IMG/VR virus record: IMGVR_UViG_3300025674_000016
Location: 1-64,000 of that record
Length of the DNA: 64,000 nt
Source of the DNA: a virus
Reading direction: 5' to 3' (one strand)
Shown here: positions 114-12,245 of the stretch, one piece after another
Position numbering within the stretch: position 1 is the first letter of the stretch
Layout of the letters: the number at the start of each line of letters is the position of its first letter
Made by a program: the position numbers and the translations under genes
The notes under the pieces: model-generated
Database searches by the model: none
Seen by the model: the letters and a program-made list of their open reading frames with translations, nothing else
What the model was told of the DNA's origin: nothing

Positions 114-451
114 GGCGCGGCCTCCAATGCTTTGACGAGGGCTTCAGCCTCAGTGTCGAAGGCCGGCAGGACGATAGCCGCCAGCCCCTCAGAGCCGTAT
201 CGAGCGCCGACCCCCCATTTGTCGCCAACTTGCATAGTGCTAACAACTGAGTCGTCGCCCCGATGTGGCTCCCACGCCTCCCTCACAAGGGCAAGCAGAC
301 ACCCCAGCGTGGCGGGGTCGGAGAGGTCGGGCAGTGCTGCCTCCCAATCATCCGTCATCTCATCTAGGCGCAAGCCGGTATCCAAAGCCAGCATTCCCGG
401 CATCCACCGCCAGTCCTTGCAGGCGACGGCCTTTTTTGCAAGCTCAATCAT
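110..451 (-). CDS. hypothetical phage protein (WRWMPGM...PDLSDPATLGCLLALVREAW type)
   Basis: 113 aa ORF, AGGA-like SD upstream, natural composition, ATGA-coupled to next gene. Confidence 0.75.
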   Translation of the reverse strand: MIELAKKAVACKDWRWMPGMLALDTGLRLDEMTDDWEAALPDLSDPATLGCLLALVREAWEPHRGDDSVVSTMQVGDKWGVGARYGSEGLAAIVLPAFDTEAEALVKALEAAP

Positions 452-505
452 CTTCTTTCCTGTTTGCTAGAGTTTGACGTACTGACAAATAAAAATTTTT
501 CCGAT

Positions 506-727
506 TCAGATTTCTCTGCCATTAAAGTTTCGCTTTAGGCTTTCAATGCAATCTTCTGCTTCTGCAAGCAATTCTAAATGTTTTTTATATTCCTCCAACA
601 TATTGCTGTGCTCGCCAATGCCGACAGGGTTCTCAAAATAAAGTTTTAAGGTTGCAAGCGCAGCATCTCGCTGCGCGACATAGTGAGACAATAAGGCCCT
701 ATAAAAAGGCAACTCTTCGTATTTCAT
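506..727 (-). CDS. small helical phage protein (NPVGIGEH motif)
   Basis: 73 aa ORF, GGAG SD, overlaps the stop of the GIY-YIG gene. Confidence 0.75.
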   Translation of the reverse strand: MKYEELPFYRALLSHYVAQRDAALATLKLYFENPVGIGEHSNMLEEYKKHLELLAEAEDCIESLKRNFNGREI

Positions 728-996
728 ATCTTCTCCATTGTGTGTAAATTTGCAATTATAAGAAGCCCCTTTTCCACCCTAGAGAGCTTCTTGATTCTCC
801 ATTCTTCTCTTTGTGCTAAGCTTCTGCTTGGATACTCAGAATAAAAAACTAACTCTACTGGTCTGCGCGTCTTTGTGTACTTTGCTCCCTTGTTTGTATT
901 GTTGTGTTCGTTGAGTCTTCTTGATAGCTCAGTTGTTATTCCAGTATAATAAGTTCCATCGGCACATTGGACGATGTATGTGTACCAAGTCTTCAT
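724..996 (-). CDS. stand-alone GIY-YIG nuclease (YhbQ/YazA-like)
   Basis: WYTYIVQCADGTYYTGIT...RRLNEHN...GAKYTKTRRPV...E..IK; start moved to ATG 996 because the track's TTG start is the -35 box. Confidence 0.9.
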   Translation of the reverse strand: MKTWYTYIVQCADGTYYTGITTELSRRLNEHNNTNKGAKYTKTRRPVELVFYSEYPSRSLAQREEWRIKKLSRVEKGLLIIANLHTMEKI

Positions 997-1003
997 GCCA
1001 AAC

Positions 1004-1032
1004 AATATAGCACTGCGCAGTCCTAGTGTCAA
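1004..1032 (-). promoter_or_regulatory. sigma70-type promoter TTGACA-17-TATATT, leaderless for the GIY-YIG gene
   Basis: -35 at 1032-1027, -10 at 1009-1004, ATG 7 nt downstream of the -10. Confidence 0.8.
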
Positions 1033-1097
1033 GCAAAAGTTTGCTCATCTCGCAATGATAAACTATTTATTTGAGAAAAATAAAAGGAGTTTGATTA

Positions 1098-2168
1098 ATG
1101 CTATTGAAACGAGGGGACCGCAGCGAAGAAGTCAAAGCGGTTCAAGAAAAACTAAAACAATTAAATTTCTATGCTGGTGGTGTTGACGGCATCTTTGGCC
1201 AAAACACAGATCGGGCAGTTCGTTCTTTTCAGGCTTCACGAGGTCTTCTTGTGGATGGTGTCGTTGGCCCTCAAACAAACGCCGCTTTGCGAAAGGCTAC
1301 AGGGCAAAAAACAGCACCTTCTAGCCCTTTGAAAGCTCCAAGAGGCCAGAACTCCGTTCCACCAACTCACGACAGTATTTCGGCCTGTAGTCACGCTGCA
1401 TGGTCAAGGTATAAAAGTTTTAAAGATTGTTTATTGGGTAGCAACAATACAGGCGAGCATGTTTTCTATGGACCGGGGCGTGGCCTTTTTGAACAAGACA
1501 AATGGGTTGTCTCATATGGCCCAGGCAAGCTAGGCAGAAAAACATGGGCAGTTAAAGGCGGTAAGACAGGCCCAAGCTTGCACTGTTCTAGTTTAACAAA
1601 TTTATTTTTGGGATATCTGCTCAATTATAATGATAAGTGGACACACCAAGGCAATATGCCAGATCAAATGAAAATGTGTTTGCAAGATGATGGGCTGCAC
1701 CCGCTTCCTCAAAATAAAAAGATTAAGTATCGAGGATACGGCGACAATTGCATGCGCCTTGCAAGCAACGGCGATACCGCAGAAAGATGGGGTATTGGCG
1801 GCAAGTTTATGCACAACAGGCTTGATGCCCTTGAAGTCTGGGAGCGCAGAAAAGAACTGGCCACTTTCAATATCTGGGCTCAAAGCACAAAGAAAGGCCG
1901 CTCTTCAAAAATGAAGTGGGACCACCATGTAGGCTTATTTATTTATGACCATGCCGAAGACCGAATGTGGCGATTGGCTGCTGATGGCTATAGGGGCAGT
2001 GGCGGTGCTTATTCTGCAACGCCCGTTCAATATCGTGAAATAGATGCTGCTTGGTCAAAGCAAGACGCAGAAAACAAATTTTATCAGATTATGCGAATTA
2101 TCCCTGATGATGAGCATGGCAATTTTGGATTGGGCAGTGAATCTTTGCCAATGGAGGTTGAGGAGTGA
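1098..2168 (+). CDS. peptidoglycan-binding domain protein with putative Cys-His (NlpC/P60/CHAP-like) hydrolase domain; endolysin candidate
   Basis: N-terminal PG_binding_1 (LKRGDRSEEVKAVQ..L...DGIFG..T..AV..FQ...GL.VDGVVGPQT); later HCSSL and DHHVG motifs; AGGAG SD. Confidence 0.75.
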   Translation: MLLKRGDRSEEVKAVQEKLKQLNFYAGGVDGIFGQNTDRAVRSFQASRGLLVDGVVGPQTNAALRKATGQKTAPSSPLKAPRGQNSVPPTHDSISACSHAAWSRYKSFKDCLLGSNNTGEHVFYGPGRGLFEQDKWVVSYGPGKLGRKTWAVKGGKTGPSLHCSSLTNLFLGYLLNYNDKWTHQGNMPDQMKMCLQDDGLHPLPQNKKIKYRGYGDNCMRLASNGDTAERWGIGGKFMHNRLDALEVWERRKELATFNIWAQSTKKGRSSKMKWDHHVGLFIYDHAEDRMWRLAADGYRGSGGAYSATPVQYREIDAAWSKQDAENKFYQIMRIIPDDEHGNFGLGSESLPMEVEE

Positions 2169-3661
2169 AAATTACAAAGACTGAATTAAAATCAATAATT
2201 TCAGAAGAGATGTCTTATGAGATCTTAGAACAAAGATTGGATTTATTAAACGAGGATCTTCGTTATATAAATAATAAAAAATTACTAAAGGAAGGTTTTT
2301 TAGACGCTGCGCAAGGTGTCTTGGACCTAGTTGGGCTAATACCTGGCGCTGGTGAGATTGCAGATGCTATTAATGGTGTGGTCTCTTTATTGAGGGCTCT
2401 TGTGGAGTCAGAAGGTAAATTTGAAAACGTATTAAATGCAATTTTTTCTTTTATATCAATGGTGCCAGCAATAGGAGATGCAGTTGGAAAAGGTGGCAAA
2501 CTTGGCATTTATTTTATAAAAATTTTAGATAAATTTCCCCAACTTAAAAAAGCGGGAGACTTAATTAATGCTGCAAAGAGCAATAAAAAATTAATGTTTG
2601 TTGTCACTAACGCTAAAAAGTTTTTCTCTGATCATGGTGACAAAGTAGTAGGTGTAGTGAAAGCTTTGCAAGAAAAAGATGTTGATTCTATCTATAGAAT
2701 TTTTAATATTAAAAAAATTAAAAATGAAAGAGTTCAACAAAAGATAGACCTCTTATTTGAACAAGGTCTAGAGGGCATCAGTGAAAGAATGCAGGGATTA
2801 GATACCGATTCTTTAACCAGTGCTATTGAAGTTCTTAATGGTTTAAATTTGCAAACAAATGAATCTATAAATAACCATAGTAATTCAATTACTAAATCAA
2901 AATTAAGACAAATTATTCGTGAAGAGTTAAATAAGCAACTCCATAAAGAAGGTATTTTTGATACACTTAAAGGCGCTTTTGGGGGCAAGAAAAGCACCAC
3001 TGGCGACTTGGATTTAGAAGCCAATGGGGACTTGGGTTCAAAGCTGGAAGAGAAAGAGAAAGAATTTAAAGCAGCAGGGACTATAGAAAAAGGAAGCCTA
3101 CGACAACCGTTTATAGATCTTGTTAATCAAGCCTTAGAAAGTAGTGATCCGGTCGCCAAAGAAAAGGCAAACGAAATAAAGAAAAAATATCGCTCTCTTT
3201 TTATAGATCCTGAGCCTTTCGATGGAAACTTGAGTTTATATTCAGGCAAAGATTTGAGTAGACAAGGTTTTAAAGGTAAAGACCTCAGAAATGTGAACTT
3301 TTCAAAATCCGATTTGCAAAATGCAAATTTTGAAAATGCTATTTTTTCTATTGACCCTGCTTTGGGTAAAGAAAATTACATTTTTTCTGGGAGTGACATT
3401 ACTGGGGCCAACTTCAAAGGTATAAGAATATATGTCCAAGGTTTAGATCAAAGTTGGCCAAAAGATGGAAAGCTCCCTTACACAGAGGAAGGTGAAGGAT
3501 ATATAGAGCGCCCAGAAGGAAACCTGCACGGCAGTCGCTACCGTCCGCGTGCTATGAGAGACTCTGACAGGAAAGCGCGGGCAGAGCACATGGAACTTTT
3601 CAAAAAGTATTTCAAAATGCTAACTAAAGGCTCGATCATAAAAGGGTATCCAAAATTTTAA
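2165..3661 (+). CDS. leader-motif protein with pre-toxin TG-like domain and pentapeptide repeats
   Basis: MKITKTELKSIISEE leader; LDLVGLIPGAGEIADAING...ISMVPAIGD; second internal leader ITKSKLRQIIREEL; DLRNVNFSKSDLQNANFENA repeats. Confidence 0.8.
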   Translation: MKITKTELKSIISEEMSYEILEQRLDLLNEDLRYINNKKLLKEGFLDAAQGVLDLVGLIPGAGEIADAINGVVSLLRALVESEGKFENVLNAIFSFISMVPAIGDAVGKGGKLGIYFIKILDKFPQLKKAGDLINAAKSNKKLMFVVTNAKKFFSDHGDKVVGVVKALQEKDVDSIYRIFNIKKIKNERVQQKIDLLFEQGLEGISERMQGLDTDSLTSAIEVLNGLNLQTNESINNHSNSITKSKLRQIIREELNKQLHKEGIFDTLKGAFGGKKSTTGDLDLEANGDLGSKLEEKEKEFKAAGTIEKGSLRQPFIDLVNQALESSDPVAKEKANEIKKKYRSLFIDPEPFDGNLSLYSGKDLSRQGFKGKDLRNVNFSKSDLQNANFENAIFSIDPALGKENYIFSGSDITGANFKGIRIYVQGLDQSWPKDGKLPYTEEGEGYIERPEGNLHGSRYRPRAMRDSDRKARAEHMELFKKYFKMLTKGSIIKGYPKF

Positions 3662-3695
3662 ATACTCTTAGAAACCAACTAGAAGAAAAATAAAA

Positions 3696-3776
3696 ATGAA
3701 GAAGATCAGCAGAAAGAAAATAGAAATAACTAAATTAAAATTAAAACAAATTATTCGTGAAGAGCTAAATAAGTGA
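3696..3776 (+). pseudogene. 26-codon chimeric mini-ORF (MKKISRKKIEITKLKLKQIIREELNK)
   Basis: 3693-3726 matches 4142-4175 at 32/34 nt; 3726-3773 matches 2888-2935 at 44/48 nt. Confidence 0.6.
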
Positions 3777-3782
3777 TATAAT
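3774..3782 (+). promoter_or_regulatory. extended -10 promoter TGaTATAAT, leaderless for the 3789 gene
   Basis: TG-n-TATAAT ends 6 nt before ATG 3789; no SD present. Confidence 0.6.
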
Positions 3783-3788
3783 GAATCC

Positions 3789-4148
3789 ATGAATTGGAAA
3801 ATAGTTCTTATCTCTGCTCTCTTGACAATTGTAGGCCAGATCTTGGTCTGGTTTCAATGCAGCCTGCAATATATTTCTGACTGGTGGAAAGATCACCCCA
3901 CACTCAATATTGTTTTATTTTCCCTTCCCGCAGCCTTTTGCTTTTATTGGGGCTGGACCTATATGGTTCAAGCCACCAATTCTTTATGGGCTGCTAGGCT
4001 AATTGGATTTGCAATTAGCTTTACAGTGTTCCCCTTTATGACGTGGTACTTTGTTGGCGAGAGCATGTTCAGGCCAAAGGTTATGATCTGCATTGTTCTT
4101 GCCATTATTATGATATTGGTTCAACTATTTTATCCGGAGACAAAATGA
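3789..4148 (+). CDS. 4-TM small membrane protein (DMT/EamA-like size)
   Basis: four hydrophobic segments in 119 aa. Confidence 0.75.
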   Translation: MNWKIVLISALLTIVGQILVWFQCSLQYISDWWKDHPTLNIVLFSLPAAFCFYWGWTYMVQATNSLWAARLIGFAISFTVFPFMTWYFVGESMFRPKVMICIVLAIIMILVQLFYPETK

Positions 4149-4369
4149 AGAAGATCAACAGAAAGAAAATGGAAAAAGATTTGTTATTGTTCGCAGAAAA
4201 GTTTGAAGACACAATAGTCGAGTGGCATGAATATGATGCTGCCAGCAAACAAGTTTTTATTTGGGTTGAAGGCAAGTGGGACTTGGACATTAAGTATGAG
4301 CTTAAAGATTATTTGCAAGAAAACTTTCACAATAGAATTCTTGTTAGCAGAATGATTTATAGAGATTAA
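4145..4369 (+). CDS. hypothetical protein (74 aa)
   Basis: ATG 4145 overlaps upstream TGA; GGAG SD. Confidence 0.65.
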   Translation: MKKINRKKMEKDLLLFAEKFEDTIVEWHEYDAASKQVFIWVEGKWDLDIKYELKDYLQENFHNRILVSRMIYRD

Positions 4370-4370
4370 G

Positions 4371-4554
4371 AGGCGTGGGCTACCCAACCCACCGCGCATG
4401 CTGCGCCCACCTGAACAGGGAGACAGGATTTTATACCTGTAAAAGATCAAGTATTCCTGGCTGTCTTATTCCTTGATCCGAGTCGTGTATGCATGTCGCC
4501 AGTAGAACTCTGCGTGTTTTCCGCCGCTCCCCTACCATCAGGGTATCTTCATTT
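4371..4554 (-). ncRNA. candidate structured ncRNA (unassigned)
   Basis: GC-rich intergenic island, several stems, G-U pairs that work only on the minus strand, dedicated promoter directly upstream. Confidence 0.55.
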
Positions 4555-4560
4555 ATAATA

Positions 4561-4589
4561 AATATAACACAGTCACAATATTTTGTCAA
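4561..4589 (-). promoter_or_regulatory. sigma70-type promoter TTGACA-17-TATATT
   Basis: -35 at 4589-4584, -10 at 4566-4561. Confidence 0.8.
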
Positions 4590-4656
4590 CTGTTTTTATA
4601 AAAAAAATAACTAATTATTTGGAATAAGAAAATTACAGTAAGGGAGAAACAAAAGC

Positions 4657-4929
4657 ATGAAGTTCACCTTTGAGCACGCTAAAACTGTTTTATCTGTCTT
4701 AGTCATTCCTGTTGCCCTTTGGGCTGTCAAGCTAGAAGTTAATAGCGCCGTAATGGCAGAGAACATGTCAAGAATGGAGGCAGATATAGAAGAGGCAAAC
4801 GAGATCAGCGCAGTTGTCCAACAAAATAAAGTAACACTTGCCCTACTAAAGGAGAGGCTAGACAATGCCAATGAAACTCTCAAAGACATTAAGGATATTC
4901 TCAGGGATCGCGTTCGTCCTGTTGATTAG
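4657..4929 (+). CDS. single-TM coiled-coil protein
   Basis: N-terminal hydrophobic helix, heptad pattern, GGGAG SD. Confidence 0.75.
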   Translation: MKFTFEHAKTVLSVLVIPVALWAVKLEVNSAVMAENMSRMEADIEEANEISAVVQQNKVTLALLKERLDNANETLKDIKDILRDRVRPVD

Positions 4930-5128
4930 TTATCTTTCTTGGGCCAGTGGCAAGACAAGCCAAGCTCAGGAATCAAATAAAGGATCTATTTATAAAGACG
5001 AACAATCTATAGATGTTAAGCAAATAGAAAAGCTTGACGAAGAACTACTTGATCTCAAACAACAAATAACAGAGATCAAAAGGAAGCAGCAAAATGATAA
5101 GGATTATAATCAGAGGAAAAGACGGTAA
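4865..5128 (+). CDS. single-TM coiled-coil protein overlapping the previous gene
   Basis: LRIFSGIAFVLLISYLSWA helix, C-terminal coiled coil, GAGG SD. Confidence 0.55.
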   Translation: MPMKLSKTLRIFSGIAFVLLISYLSWASGKTSQAQESNKGSIYKDEQSIDVKQIEKLDEELLDLKQQITEIKRKQQNDKDYNQRKRR

Positions 5129-5693
5129 AGCCAAGCTTTGCCCCGAAGCAACTCAAGATCTCGAATTAAATACAAAAAATAGGGACGCCTCTATAAAAGC
5201 AGATCATATACAATATGGCCCTCTTAATGTTGATGAGCCGGGTAGCTACTGGAAGGATATTGCAGACCACTGGGATACTGCCGAGGAGGCTGCAAAAAAA
5301 TCTCTTTGTGGTAACTGTGTTGCATTTGATATCTCTCCAAGAATGAAAGATTGTATGCCAGGTGAAACGTCTGATGACGACGGTGAGCTAGGCTATTGCT
5401 GGATGCATCATTTTAAATGTCACTCTGCAAGATCTTGCCGAACATGGGCAAAAGGTGGCCCAATCAAAAACGACGAAAAGTCAAAAGAATGGCAAGACAA
5501 AAACAAAGAACAATTAGACGAAAAGAAAAAGAAACGTAAAAAGAAGAAAAAGAAACGTAAAAAGAAGAAAAAGAAAGCAGGGGATAGATGTGTGAGAATT
5601 GCAAAGCGCAAGTATGACGTTTGGCCCTCTGCCTACGCCTCTGGCGCTGTAGTTAAGTGCAGGCAAGGTAAAATATGGAAGGGTGAAAAATGA
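5094..5693 (+). CDS. Cys-rich (HiPIP-like CGNC...C...C..W) plus poly-Lys phage protein
   Basis: LCGNCVAF...GYC...FKCHSARSCRTW; LDE then 18 K/R; KRKYDVWPSAYASG module. Confidence 0.85.
   Translation: MIRIIIRGKDGKAKLCPEATQDLELNTKNRDASIKADHIQYGPLNVDEPGSYWKDIADHWDTAEEAAKKSLCGNCVAFDISPRMKDCMPGETSDDDGELGYCWMHHFKCHSARSCRTWAKGGPIKNDEKSKEWQDKNKEQLDEKKKKRKKKKKKRKKKKKKAGDRCVRIAKRKYDVWPSAYASGAVVKCRQGKIWKGEK
5523..5576 (+). repeat. 21-nt tandem repeat encoding a poly-Lys/Arg tract
   Basis: AAGAAAAAGAAACGTAAAAAG x2 plus a partial third copy. Confidence 0.8.
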
Positions 5694-6229
5694 TAAGAAT
5701 TAGAATTGTTTCATCACTAAAAAGCAAAATAAGAAAAGCTCTTCACGATGAAGGTGGCGCTGCCGGTATGGATGCCTTGATAAAACATACCGGCTCTGAC
5801 AAGCAAACTATAGATGCCGCTGTTCAGGAGATGCCAGATGTTGCGATACACAAGCACGGGGATTATATCATTGACGACGATGCTTGGGTGGATGTTGATG
5901 GCACTCAAAGAATAGATGAAAAAAAGAAGCGTAAAAAAAAACGCAAAAAAAAGAAACGTAAAAAGAAAGCCGGTACTGAATCCTCAAAGGAAAGCTCTTT
6001 AAGAGACTGGTTTGGCAGAAGAGGCGGTAAAGGCAAAGCCAAGGGCTGGGTTGATTGCAATACATGCCGCAAAGATAAGAAGACAGGTCGCAAAAAATGC
6101 AAGCCTTGCGGTCGCCAAAAAGGCGAAAAAAGATCAAAATATCCAGCTTGCCGACCAACGCCCGGAGCCTGCGAAGAAAGAGGTCGTGGTAAGAGTTGGG
6201 GCAAAAAATCCAAAAAGGGGAAAAAATAA
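5690..6229 (+). CDS. highly basic Cys-containing phage protein
   Basis: IDE then 16 K/R; LRDWF...GWVDC...PCGR...KYPACRP module. Confidence 0.85.
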   Translation: MIRIRIVSSLKSKIRKALHDEGGAAGMDALIKHTGSDKQTIDAAVQEMPDVAIHKHGDYIIDDDAWVDVDGTQRIDEKKKRKKKRKKKKRKKKAGTESSKESSLRDWFGRRGGKGKAKGWVDCNTCRKDKKTGRKKCKPCGRQKGEKRSKYPACRPTPGACEERGRGKSWGKKSKKGKK

Positions 6230-6486
6230 TGAAACTAACAAAAAGTCTATTGGAGTCTCTAATCAGGGAAGCACTAGAAGAGACAGGATGTAGAGGAAGA
6301 GAACTAGAAGAAGGCAACTGTGTAAGCGAAGAAGAACAAACTTTAGAGGAAAAGAAAAAGAAGAAAAAGAAAAAATCCAAAAAAGTTGAAAACCCAAGAA
6401 AGTACAAAAAGAGGAATTACGATAGAGATGGTGACGGTGTTCCAAATGGGGCAGACTCTAAACCAGATGATGGTAGTAAATCATGA
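6229..6486 (+). CDS. leader-motif protein with poly-Lys tract and DxDGDG (TSP3-like) motif
   Basis: MKLTKSLLESLIREAL; LEE-KKKKKKKK; DRDGDGVPNGAD; start at ATG 6229 overlapping upstream TAA. Confidence 0.75.
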   Translation: MKLTKSLLESLIREALEETGCRGRELEEGNCVSEEEQTLEEKKKKKKKKSKKVENPRKYKKRNYDRDGDGVPNGADSKPDDGSKS

Positions 6487-7076
6487 AAATGCAAAACTTA
6501 TTTGAAGGCTTCAGAAAATGGTCAAATGAAAAGCCTATTATTTCTGAGGCTCTTCAGTATCACATAGATCACGATGTTGGAATTGATAGAAATGTATTCA
6601 GGCCGGGATCTAAAGAGTTTTTATCTTTATTCAAAGAAGTTAGAGATCTCTATAATAAAGGCCAATACAAACTAAACGAAGGTGAAGAATATTATATTCT
6701 CGAAACAGACATAGGCGAATACGCTTTATATGAAGGCGAGATGGTCCCTCTTGATATGCCGATGCCGATTGAGGAAGCTAAAAAGAGGCGTAAAAAAAAG
6801 AAAAAGAAAAACCCTCCTCTCAACAAACCTTCGCTAAACACAGGCGGCGGCAAAAAGTGGAAAGTCTTTGTTCGAAGTAAATCAGGTGGTGTTAAAAAAG
6901 TTACCTTTGGAGACAAGAAAGGCGGATTGAAAGGCAACTGGAATGATCCAAAAGCTCGCGCATCTTTTGCAAAAAGACACAAGTGTGCAGAGAAAAAAGA
7001 TAAAACCAAAGCAGGCTACTGGTCTTGTAGGGCACACAAATACTTTGGCAAGAATGTCCCAGGCCGTTTCTGGTGA
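6483..7076 (+). CDS. phage protein with basic C-terminal module (KKWKVFV...VKKVTFGD...ARASFAKRHKC)
   Basis: MKMQNLFEGFRKW leader; IEE-A-KKRRKKKKKK junction. Confidence 0.85.
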   Translation: MKMQNLFEGFRKWSNEKPIISEALQYHIDHDVGIDRNVFRPGSKEFLSLFKEVRDLYNKGQYKLNEGEEYYILETDIGEYALYEGEMVPLDMPMPIEEAKKRRKKKKKKNPPLNKPSLNTGGGKKWKVFVRSKSGGVKKVTFGDKKGGLKGNWNDPKARASFAKRHKCAEKKDKTKAGYWSCRAHKYFGKNVPGRFW

Positions 7077-7085
7077 GAATATAGA

Positions 7086-8096
7086 ATGAAGTTAATCTTT
7101 GAAAACTGGCGGAGGCACTTAAAAGAAAATTTTTCTCAAGGGGGTGAATACTTCTTGAGGTTCGGAGACCCACGAGAGGTAAAAAACTCTGTTATACACG
7201 ATCCTAGAATGGAATATGAGCGACTATCTTCTGATGACTGGTCTAGCGGCATGGTGCATCAGAAATATGAAGCTGGTATTTCCGCATACCCAGTCTTGCA
7301 TTATGGTGAAGACAAAGTAGTTTTTGAAGCTCCTGTGGGGCTTGATGTTTTTGCCGGTCAGGCTAAAGGGTTTCTTTTCGATAGATTGCTTAATCAAGAA
7401 ATATATGTTTTCAAAGCAGACAAGCTAAGTAAGGCCGGAACTGACGGTGAGCCATTGATCATCGACAACACAATAGAGGATGTTCAAAGAATAAAACATA
7501 GAAATATCTATTTGGGACAAGAAATCTGGGATGAAAAAGAGAAAAAGGCCACTCTCATACAATACAAAAATATATTTGATTTCATCAGGCCATATGATAT
7601 TAAATTCGAATATGAAAATAGTTATGAAAAGTTTTTTGACTACGATAAACACACAACCATCGATAAACTTCTGCCCCCCGAAGAGGTAAAGAAAAAATAT
7701 CAAGCAGAGTTTGATAGACTAAAACAGATCTTTCCAACAGAGGAACACCGTAAAGTAATAGACGAACAAATAACAGATTACGACGAGGAACTTGAGTATT
7801 ATAAAGAGCGTTATAAAAAAAAACAAGCAGATAGCATGCCCTTCTCTCAAGAACAAATAGATGAGTCCACATTTATCAGAGAGTTTAGTCAGGACATTGA
7901 CAGTGAAGAACTTATCTGGCACATGGATCGTGAAGATAGAACCGTTACCATCCTAGAGTCAAGTGGCTGGGAGTTTCAAATGGACAATGAACTTCCAAAG
8001 ATATTAAAAGAAGGCGATGTGCTTTTTATTCCCAAATACACTTATCACAGGGTAATTAAAGGTAGTGGAAAACTTATCGTGGAGATCAAAGAGTGA
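7086..8096 (+). CDS. leader-motif protein: possible R-S-E ART-like domain fused to C-terminal cupin
   Basis: MKLIFENWRRHLKE; FLRFG...EAGISAY...DGEPLI; WHMDREDR...LFIPKYTYHRVIKG. Confidence 0.7.
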   Translation: MKLIFENWRRHLKENFSQGGEYFLRFGDPREVKNSVIHDPRMEYERLSSDDWSSGMVHQKYEAGISAYPVLHYGEDKVVFEAPVGLDVFAGQAKGFLFDRLLNQEIYVFKADKLSKAGTDGEPLIIDNTIEDVQRIKHRNIYLGQEIWDEKEKKATLIQYKNIFDFIRPYDIKFEYENSYEKFFDYDKHTTIDKLLPPEEVKKKYQAEFDRLKQIFPTEEHRKVIDEQITDYDEELEYYKERYKKKQADSMPFSQEQIDESTFIREFSQDIDSEELIWHMDREDRTVTILESSGWEFQMDNELPKILKEGDVLFIPKYTYHRVIKGSGKLIVEIKE

Positions 8097-10869: not shown

Positions 10870-12191
10870 AACTAACAAGCAATATTTTAAAAAAATTAAT
10901 ACTAGAAGCCCTTAGAGAAAAATACGACTACTCTAGCGAAGAAGATGAAAACATTAAAGCTCTTAAAAAATACAAGGCAGCAGGGTTGTCTGGCGTATCA
11001 CAAAGAATTGGTAAGTGCCTTATCAAAAACAAAGAATACGCAAAGGGTAAAAGCTCCTTTTCTTACGAGGATCGGCTTTGCTTAGAAGAACAAGGTTTCA
11101 CTAAGCTTGGGTTGGGCTCGTTTAGGATTGTGTTTTTAGATAATCAAAATAAAGATAGAGTTATAAAGCTTGCTCTCGACCTACCCGAACAAGAAGAGGA
11201 AGATGAAGAGGAAGAACAAGAGGAAGAAGAACAAGAACAGCAAGAAGAAGAACAAGAACAGCAAGAAGAAGAACAAGAACAGGAAGAAGATGAAGAAGAG
11301 GAAGAAGAAGAGGTAGAAATTTCTAAAGGCATGTCTATGAACTTAAAAGAGGCAAGTTTAAGACTCCAAACCTTATCCCCAATGTTCCCGAAAGTTTACA
11401 GCAAACACCCACATGGCATTTGGATCGAGGTAGAAAGAGTAAATATTTTTAAATTTAAACACAAGGACGATTATTTCGGCAATGAAAGTTGGGCTCCGAT
11501 AAAAAAGTTTTTTCCAAACTTCTCCAAAAATTACCAGAAATTCGATCAGATAAGGACTGAACTCAAAGAATTGGTCCCAGACCTGATAACCGAAGCCGCA
11601 GGGCAAAAATACACTCTTGATGACATACACAAACTGCTTCCGTTTACTAAAGAAAAGCCATTAGACAAAGCATTTATGATTCCAGACATCCATTCAACAT
11701 ATCACTCCATTGCGGATAAAGAAAGCGCGTTTGTGGCAACGTGGAGTTTGCTTATTATTGGCAATAAGGGGCTTAGGGGTAAGTCTTCTTATAAATTTCT
11801 TTATGACAATATAATTTCCCGTGTAAGAACTATGGTCTCCCAAGTGTTTGATCCCAAAGAAGAACAAGAAGAAGAAGAAGAAAGCTTTATTGATGATGAA
11901 TGGTTTGAGGATTTTGTGTTCGAAAACTTAGATAAAAATAATGCAGTTATAGAAGAAATTGTAAATAAAGTAGAAAATTATCTACAACCAAGATTGCAAA
12001 GCGCGTATAAACTAATTACAAGTGACCGTACTTACCAAGAGCTTTTGAGAGTTCATGACGAACTTGATGAAGATTTTCAATTATGGGATTTGAGGCCAGA
12101 CAACTTGGGATCAGCAATAAGAAATGGAAAAGAAACTCTTGTGCTCATTGATCCTGGTTTCGATATGGATATCGACCCCAGAAATAGATAA
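10866..12191 (+). CDS. leader-motif protein kinase-like enzyme
   Basis: MKLTSNILKKLILEAL; LGLGSFRIVF (Gly loop), VIKLA, NLKEA, FPKVY, WDLRPDNLG (catalytic loop), LIDPGF. Confidence 0.85.
   Translation: MKLTSNILKKLILEALREKYDYSSEEDENIKALKKYKAAGLSGVSQRIGKCLIKNKEYAKGKSSFSYEDRLCLEEQGFTKLGLGSFRIVFLDNQNKDRVIKLALDLPEQEEEDEEEEQEEEEQEQQEEEQEQQEEEQEQEEDEEEEEEEVEISKGMSMNLKEASLRLQTLSPMFPKVYSKHPHGIWIEVERVNIFKFKHKDDYFGNESWAPIKKFFPNFSKNYQKFDQIRTELKELVPDLITEAAGQKYTLDDIHKLLPFTKEKPLDKAFMIPDIHSTYHSIADKESAFVATWSLLIIGNKGLRGKSSYKFLYDNIISRVRTMVSQVFDPKEEQEEEEESFIDDEWFEDFVFENLDKNNAVIEEIVNKVENYLQPRLQSAYKLITSDRTYQELLRVHDELDEDFQLWDLRPDNLGSAIRNGKETLVLIDPGFDMDIDPRNR
11187..11312 (+). repeat. 42-codon Glu/Gln tract with a 21-nt tandem unit
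   Basis: GAAGAAGAACAAGAACAGCAA at 11223, 11244 and (partial) 11265. Confidence 0.85.
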
Positions 12192-12206: not shown

Positions 12207-12245
12207 ATGAAGATAACTAAATCTAAACTTGGAAGAAAAAAATGA
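12207..12245 (+). pseudogene. truncated leader remnant MKITKSKLGRKK*
   Basis: GAGG SD upstream, first 8 codons match the shared leader, stop overlaps ATG 12242. Confidence 0.55.

Follow-up and report, generated by a model that had tools for sequence, protein, structure and literature searches.

The 26-codon open reading frame at 3696-3776 of the window (the whole 64,000-nt stretch analysed here, with which a single virus contig of 155,702 nt begins) is an in-frame chimera of two sequences found nearby, and is probably a scar of recombination that has no function, left in a hypervariable slot for cargo genes in a marine T4-like phage. This slot, which extends from an endolysin-like gene to the promoter-like motif of a membrane protein gene, houses genes sharing a leader that ends in I-x-E, and we propose that related strains exchange, fuse and delete these tagged genes through recombination in or next to the leader-coding DNA. 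The features on which this reading draws, all on the plus strand, are the following.

1098-2168, plus strand: endolysin-like gene with a PG_binding_1 N-terminus (Pfam and PHROG matches); conserved left flank of the slot
2165-2218, plus strand: leader 1, the N-terminal tag of a 498-aa ORF, with I-x-E at residues 12-14; left breakpoint zone
2219-2881, plus strand: N-domain cargo of a glycine-rich family, with matches among representative proteins to residues ~35-200 of the 498-aa ORF; absent from the slot in all relatives found
2882-2935, plus strand: internal leader 2, which lacks its own start codon; either the donor of the mini-ORF's 3' part or a paralogue of it
2936-3661, plus strand: pentapeptide-repeat cargo (Pfam PF00805), a strongly diverged allele
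3662-3692, plus strand: unique spacer, for which relatives show no detectable homology; lacks a Shine-Dalgarno core
3693-3726, plus strand: S1, a secondary copy, 32/34 to 4142-4175, in which the start of the 74-aa gene is repeated without its GGAG
3696-3776, plus strand: chimeric mini-ORF of 26 codons with an in-frame join, whose TGA stop forms the TG-n of the promoter-like motif that follows
3726-3773, plus strand: leader 3, pentapeptide-type and cargo-less, 44/48 to leader 2 (2888-2935)
3774-3782, plus strand: extended -10-like motif TGnTATAAT, 6 nt before the ATG at 3789; the conserved right flank begins here
3789-4148, plus strand: gene for a conserved 119-aa membrane protein, resident rather than a cassette
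4142-4175, plus strand: S2, from which S1 was copied; lies at the start of the 74-aa gene and has the same sequence in five close relatives
4145-4369, plus strand: conserved 74-aa gene, always behind the membrane gene

The mini-ORF joins copies of two nearby sequences

The first-pass annotation had described the mini-ORF as an in-frame chimera built from two neighbouring sequences, with identities of 32/34 between 3693-3726 and 4142-4175 and of 44/48 between 3726-3773 and 2888-2935; recomputing both alignments returned the same values, and the description holds. The two repeats are real and far beyond chance: in 25 composition-preserving Markov shuffles of the region, identity never exceeded 26/34 and 33/48, and within 1-14 kb no other pairs of sequences come up to the observed identities. 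Across the genome, the 34-nt piece (S1) recurs once only (as S2, at 4142-4175), while the 48-nt piece (leader 3) finds its best match at 2888, with the remaining leaders reaching 34-36/48 only. Leader 3 can also be compared with the corresponding leaders of two related phages, L008 and L010, to which it is identical at 41/48 and 39/48 positions, respectively.

The limits of the copied pieces are well defined. S1 begins 3 nt before the ATG, and the GGAG of the donor is not included in the copy; there is no Shine-Dalgarno core ahead of 3696, a signal that is present for 80 of the 140 long ORFs of the genome. The join between S1 and leader 3 has 2 nt in common, and the joins of the mini-ORF as a whole share 2-4 nt. 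The resulting frame carries a complete leader, I-x-E included, with no cargo behind it, and predicted cleavage of the peptide at I-x-E would leave four residues only. When the S1/leader junction was searched for in IMG/VR with a degenerate pattern, the seven hits were all due to chance, and single-sequence searches of IMG/VR with the locus returned no match.

Slot contents differ among relatives between conserved flanks

Contigs of related phages were recovered by searching with the membrane protein (3789-4148), the 74-aa protein (4145-4369) and the cargo proteins. Six different contents are found between the endolysin-like gene and the membrane gene, with flanks of 86-95% DNA identity.

L047, 44 nt: empty but for a 4-codon leader remnant that overlaps the endolysin stop
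L012 and L046 (L007 and L013 are consistent), ~554 nt: one tagged gene of 177-178 aa
L008 and L009, ~1,597 nt: a tagged 341-aa pentapeptide gene and a tagged 187-aa gene
L010, ~1,105 nt: a tagged 355-aa pentapeptide gene only
L014, a more distant relative: two other tagged genes
Window, 1,620 nt: the fused 498-aa ORF and the mini-ORF

On the left, the stop codon of the endolysin-like gene overlaps the GTG start of the next gene, and the endolysin-like gene itself is 88-93% identical in L008, L010, L012 and L046. The left breakpoints lie inside leader 1 (2165-2209), with homology to L012 ending at 2175 and homology to L008 and L010 ending at 2209. On the right, a common breakpoint is found: the homology of L007-L010, L012 and L013 resumes at window 3766-3772, and the 3' end of the mini-ORF coincides exactly with this point. 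Where the window has the mini-ORF, relatives have a tagged cargo gene of 178-187 aa or nothing. The leaders themselves record exchange. In L010 the leader is a hybrid, leader 1-type at informative sites up to about nucleotide 20 and leader 2-type from nucleotide 26, and in L008 the switch from leader 1 type to leader 2 type comes earlier, at about nucleotides 6-14; crossovers therefore fall inside the leader-coding DNA.

The pentapeptide cargo varies in a different manner. The alleles of the window (2936-3661), L008 (436-1407) and L010 (189-1202) are only 30-32% identical as proteins, with the first ~33 residues conserved, a pattern of allele replacement or rapid diversification. Together with the six slot contents and the hybrid leader of L010, these diverged alleles behind a conserved leader bear out the view, put forward in the first-pass annotation, that leader-coding DNA is a substrate for recombination.

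Two of the related slots show further detail close to the membrane gene. In L047 (1724-1772) the 4-codon remnant at the endolysin stop is followed by ~30 nt and then by the membrane-gene motif. In L010 the same 7-nt string stands directly before the promoter-like motif, such that cargo deletion via this microhomology would be possible; the base after the string, however, agrees better with an L008-like parent.

The membrane gene and the 74-aa gene form a resident right flank

The membrane gene and the 74-aa gene were found together in every relative, whichever gene served as the query. The membrane gene is conserved down to 39-55% identity, and wherever the contig reaches far enough the 74-aa gene comes next. 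Since both genes are conserved and the S2 version is present in five close relatives, S2 is the source and S1 the copy. A motif of the TGnTAnnAT type stands 6-7 nt before the ATG or GTG of the membrane gene in ~25 relatives (L004-L030), down to 55% protein identity. Given this conserved spacing, the membrane gene looks like a self-contained unit, probably expressed from a leaderless transcript. Behind the 74-aa gene, the GC-rich non-coding stretch at 4371-4589 is nearly invariant between the window and L007.

The 498-aa ORF is a fusion of two tagged genes

From residue 242 onward, the 498-aa ORF aligns to residue 3 of the stand-alone proteins P0040 and P0051, both of which start with M-K and the leader and continue into a pentapeptide-repeat body. 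Judged from these alignments, the ORF is a fusion of two tagged genes, with internal leader 2 marking the seam. Relatives of its N-terminal part were sought in a search of 1.8 billion representative proteins, which returned stand-alone proteins by the hundred, 120-330 aa in length; the leader begins about one in five of the top matches. Four members of this family have internal leaders, and besides the 498-aa ORF a leader-like motif in an internal position is found in P0013, P0035 and P0076, so that fusions of this kind recur. Provided that a protease site lies in the leader, they would do no harm.

The N-domain family (P0012-P0160) is uncharacterised and has two conserved glycine-rich blocks, with 391 matches at E <= 0.001. 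The sole Pfam match is a weak one, to DUF4112, and some family members carry two copies of the domain.

A shared leader resembles the tags of T4 internal head proteins

The leader of the 498-aa ORF belongs to a wider family. A related leader of 14-16 residues, with I-x-E at residues 12-14, starts the genes at 2165, 6226, 9706 and 10866, and the same family is found outside the window at the genes located at 75.7, 81.4, 81.9, 82.4 and 119.9 kb. A second class of leader, with L-x-E in the same position, starts the genes at 7086 and 80782. The cargo proteins behind the common leader are mutually unrelated. No consistent T4-late-promoter-like motif was found upstream of the tagged genes; a TAAATA core 33-39 nt before the mini-ORF start and another inside the last leader codons are explained by the codons themselves.

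A second orphan, a half-leader, lies at 12207-12245: a 12-codon ORF with a good ribosome-binding site that encodes leader residues 1-8. The stop codon shares bases with the ATG of an 84-aa gene at 12242, and the overlap contains a run of seven A, in which one additional A would fuse both frames.

The 155,702-nt contig encodes a gp21-type (T4-type) prohead protease (PF03420 at genome 89347-89757, E 1.3e-31), a gp23-type capsid protein (PF07068 at genome 92232-93734, E 1.3e-70) and a gp6-like baseplate wedge protein. When 2000-8000 was compared with deposited phages by blastn, only 68-nt matches were obtained, to the Methylophilales phage (a myophage) Melnitz, and the 498-aa protein found no match in the same phages by tblastn. 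These T4-type protease, capsid and baseplate genes, along with the trace DNA similarity to deposited phages, identify the source as an uncultured marine or estuarine T4-like myophage.

The T4 gp21 protease is known to prefer (L/I)-x-E. The leader agrees with this preference and with the logic of capsid targeting in T4 (PMC3012670), and we infer that it may serve as a T4-type capsid-targeting sequence with a prohead-protease site. Three hallmarks of T4-type internal head proteins are found here: genes for a gp21-type protease and a gp23-type capsid, a short shared N-terminus ending in (L/I)-x-E, and a hypervariable locus.

Origin of the mini-ORF

Two changes would account for the slot of this strain. 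In one, the N-domain gene would have been fused in front of the pentapeptide gene; in the other, the gene that relatives have just upstream of the membrane gene would have been lost. What remains of the lost gene would be a cargo-less leader of the pentapeptide type, cut exactly at the promoter-like motif of the membrane gene, and the 5' end of the mini-ORF would consist of 34 nt copied from a site 449 nt downstream, the beginning of the 74-aa gene. Two versions of this course of events can be envisaged. Leader 3 may be what is left of a tagged gene that was resident here and received a 34-nt patch from S2 at its 5' end; alternatively, S1 and leader 3 may both be templated patches laid down during repair, with leader 3 taken from 2888. 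The 2-4 nt shared at the junctions fit illegitimate joining or template switching in repair and not a site-specific cassette mechanism, while the similar divergence of the two pieces from their source copies (2/34 for S1 and 4/48 for leader 3) would agree with one event dating from around the time at which the strains split. That tagged genes are truncated repeatedly finds support in the 4-codon remnant of L047 and in the half-leader at 12207-12245.

Several observations count against reading the mini-ORF as a scar. No ancestor or intermediate with the same join was found, and comparison of the spacer at 3662-3692 with the relatives revealed no convincing homology; with no homologue of the spacer, the left junction cannot be reconstructed. 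In addition, the mini-ORF is open and in frame (a chance of 1 in 3) despite 6 substitutions relative to the source copies.

Part of this evidence would suit an expressed small gene, either one for a cargo-less peptide that tunes or competes for prohead loading, or an upstream ORF with an influence on membrane-gene translation. A complete leader with I-x-E is encoded in an open frame whose stop lies 12 nt ahead of the ATG at 3789, A-rich upstream sequence can allow initiation without a Shine-Dalgarno sequence, and the other mini-ORF, at 12207, is preceded by a good ribosome-binding site and runs into the following start codon. However, the mini-ORF is absent from all relatives with a different slot content, which have unrelated sequence or a full cargo gene in its place, there is no Shine-Dalgarno core, and in all relatives the membrane gene starts 6-7 nt behind a promoter-like motif of its own, which points to a leaderless mRNA from which the mini-ORF would be missing. 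Neither the conservation in relatives nor the translation signals expected of a functional small gene are thus seen at 3696-3776, and we regard expression of this kind as unlikely.

Somewhat less likely still is the proposal, made in the first-pass annotation, that 2888-3725 and 3726-4141 are insertable cassettes bounded by direct repeats and moving at those repeats. The repeats are laid out as it described, and recombination between the members of each pair, which would delete 838 or 449 nt, is mechanistically possible. Yet a boundary at 2888 or at 3725/3726 is seen in none of ~30 related loci, the boundaries observed being 2165-2209 and 3766-3773; the membrane gene is never absent, is conserved down to 39-55% identity and is followed by the 74-aa gene wherever the contig extends that far; and the segments are not flanked by any stem-loop or terminator-like element. 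Nor was any variant recombined between the two repeat pairs found among the relatives.

The join is carried by three assemblies

The segment 3651-3800 is identical, and in the same context, in L044 (an ENA k141 contig of 169,681 nt) and in L045 (a Logan contig, SRR5468114). L045 matches the window with 100% identity over 5,153 nt, and L044 does so with zero mismatches and one gap over 6,505 nt, the gap being of 21 nt and located somewhere in 157-6682. The join is thus carried by three assemblies from different pipelines, although the samples behind them may not be independent. The longest exact runs inside the repeats are of 16-19 nt, which makes a k-mer mis-join very unlikely. Strains with differing slot contents do co-occur in similar samples, but given identical sequence from three assemblies of different pipelines, one of them at k = 141, and repeats whose exact runs of at most 19 nt and S1/leader join of 2 common nt provide no shared k-mer to create it, an artefact of assembly, in which co-occurring strains were merged into a chimera, is extremely improbable as the origin of the join. 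The identity of the three assemblies has a cost for the interpretation of the mini-ORF as a scar, and counts against it, as it gives no readout of decay or selection.

Relation to known systems

T-even internal proteins and the capsid targeting sequence were reportedly the subject of work by Mullaney and Black in 1996. The nearest known counterpart is the pair of T-even IP loci. According to two later articles that cite Repoila et al. 1994 (PMC3012670, PMC2839356), they are hypervariable and comprise >30 unrelated internal proteins with only the capsid targeting sequence in common; these loci have been linked to flanking promoter/stem-loop elements (PMC2839356). The locus described here resembles them in that a T4-type phage with a gp21-type protease has unrelated, fast-changing small proteins that share a short N-terminus with (L/I)-x-E, in being hypervariable between close relatives, and in that an arms-race role has been proposed for the cargo. 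It differs in that the leader is longer and of different sequence, the genes are spread across 2-12 kb, 75-83 kb and 119.9 kb, the crossovers fall inside leader-coding DNA, internal leaders (fusions) and cargo-less remnants occur, and packaging and cleavage are putative.

A second comparison can be drawn with the PeSL mobile regulatory cassettes of T4-type phages, which are non-coding units that combine an early promoter with a stem-loop (Arbiol et al. 2010, PMC2839356; Comeau et al. 2014, PMC4122927). In both cases small accessory genes are gained, lost or replaced between short repeats in hyperplastic regions of otherwise near-identical genomes. In contrast to PeSL cassettes, the repeated unit here is coding (the leader); no stem-loop or terminator-like element was found in 2000-4800, and the flanking early promoter and GC-rich stem-loop units by which a PeSL is recognised are not seen in that interval. 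The 34- and 48-nt patches, drawn from 449 and 838 nt away with 2-4 nt at the joins, also recall the templated 'filler' patches of microhomology-mediated template switching; unlike these, the 48-nt piece may be the resident leader of a deleted gene, and the event is deduced here from sequence only.

Taken alone, the mini-ORF is a minor scar. Considered with the six slot alleles and the hybrid leader, it offers a base-level view of how a T4-like phage turns over proteins that are probably delivered in the capsid, with recombination in the tag-coding DNA, tolerated fusions and leftover remnants. The contrast between flanks that are ~90% identical and pentapeptide alleles that are ~30% identical makes the cargo a candidate arms-race (anti-defence) factor. 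A broader and rather doubtful possibility is that the leader DNA doubles as a capsid-loading tag and as a portable homology box for the in-frame swap, fusion and loss of cargo between co-infecting relatives, fusions being harmless because the tag contains the protease site, and the cargo-less leaders (3696-3776, the L047 remnant and 12207) representing empty docking points that capture cargo. The system also hints at natural rules by which cargo can be exchanged behind a capsid-loading tag, which would be useful for the engineering of phage protein delivery.

Other features of the window

Two further regions of the window stand out in composition. At its left end, the stretch at 1-470 has a GC content well above that of the rest of the genome (~50% in the first kb versus ~38%) and carries a 113-aa ORF on the minus strand; L044 and L045 both begin inside this high-GC stretch, at window 157 and 268. 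Long coding repeats, lysine-rich (AAG/AAA) and glutamate-rich (GAA/GAG), are found in several neighbouring genes at 5500-6820 and 11180-11330.
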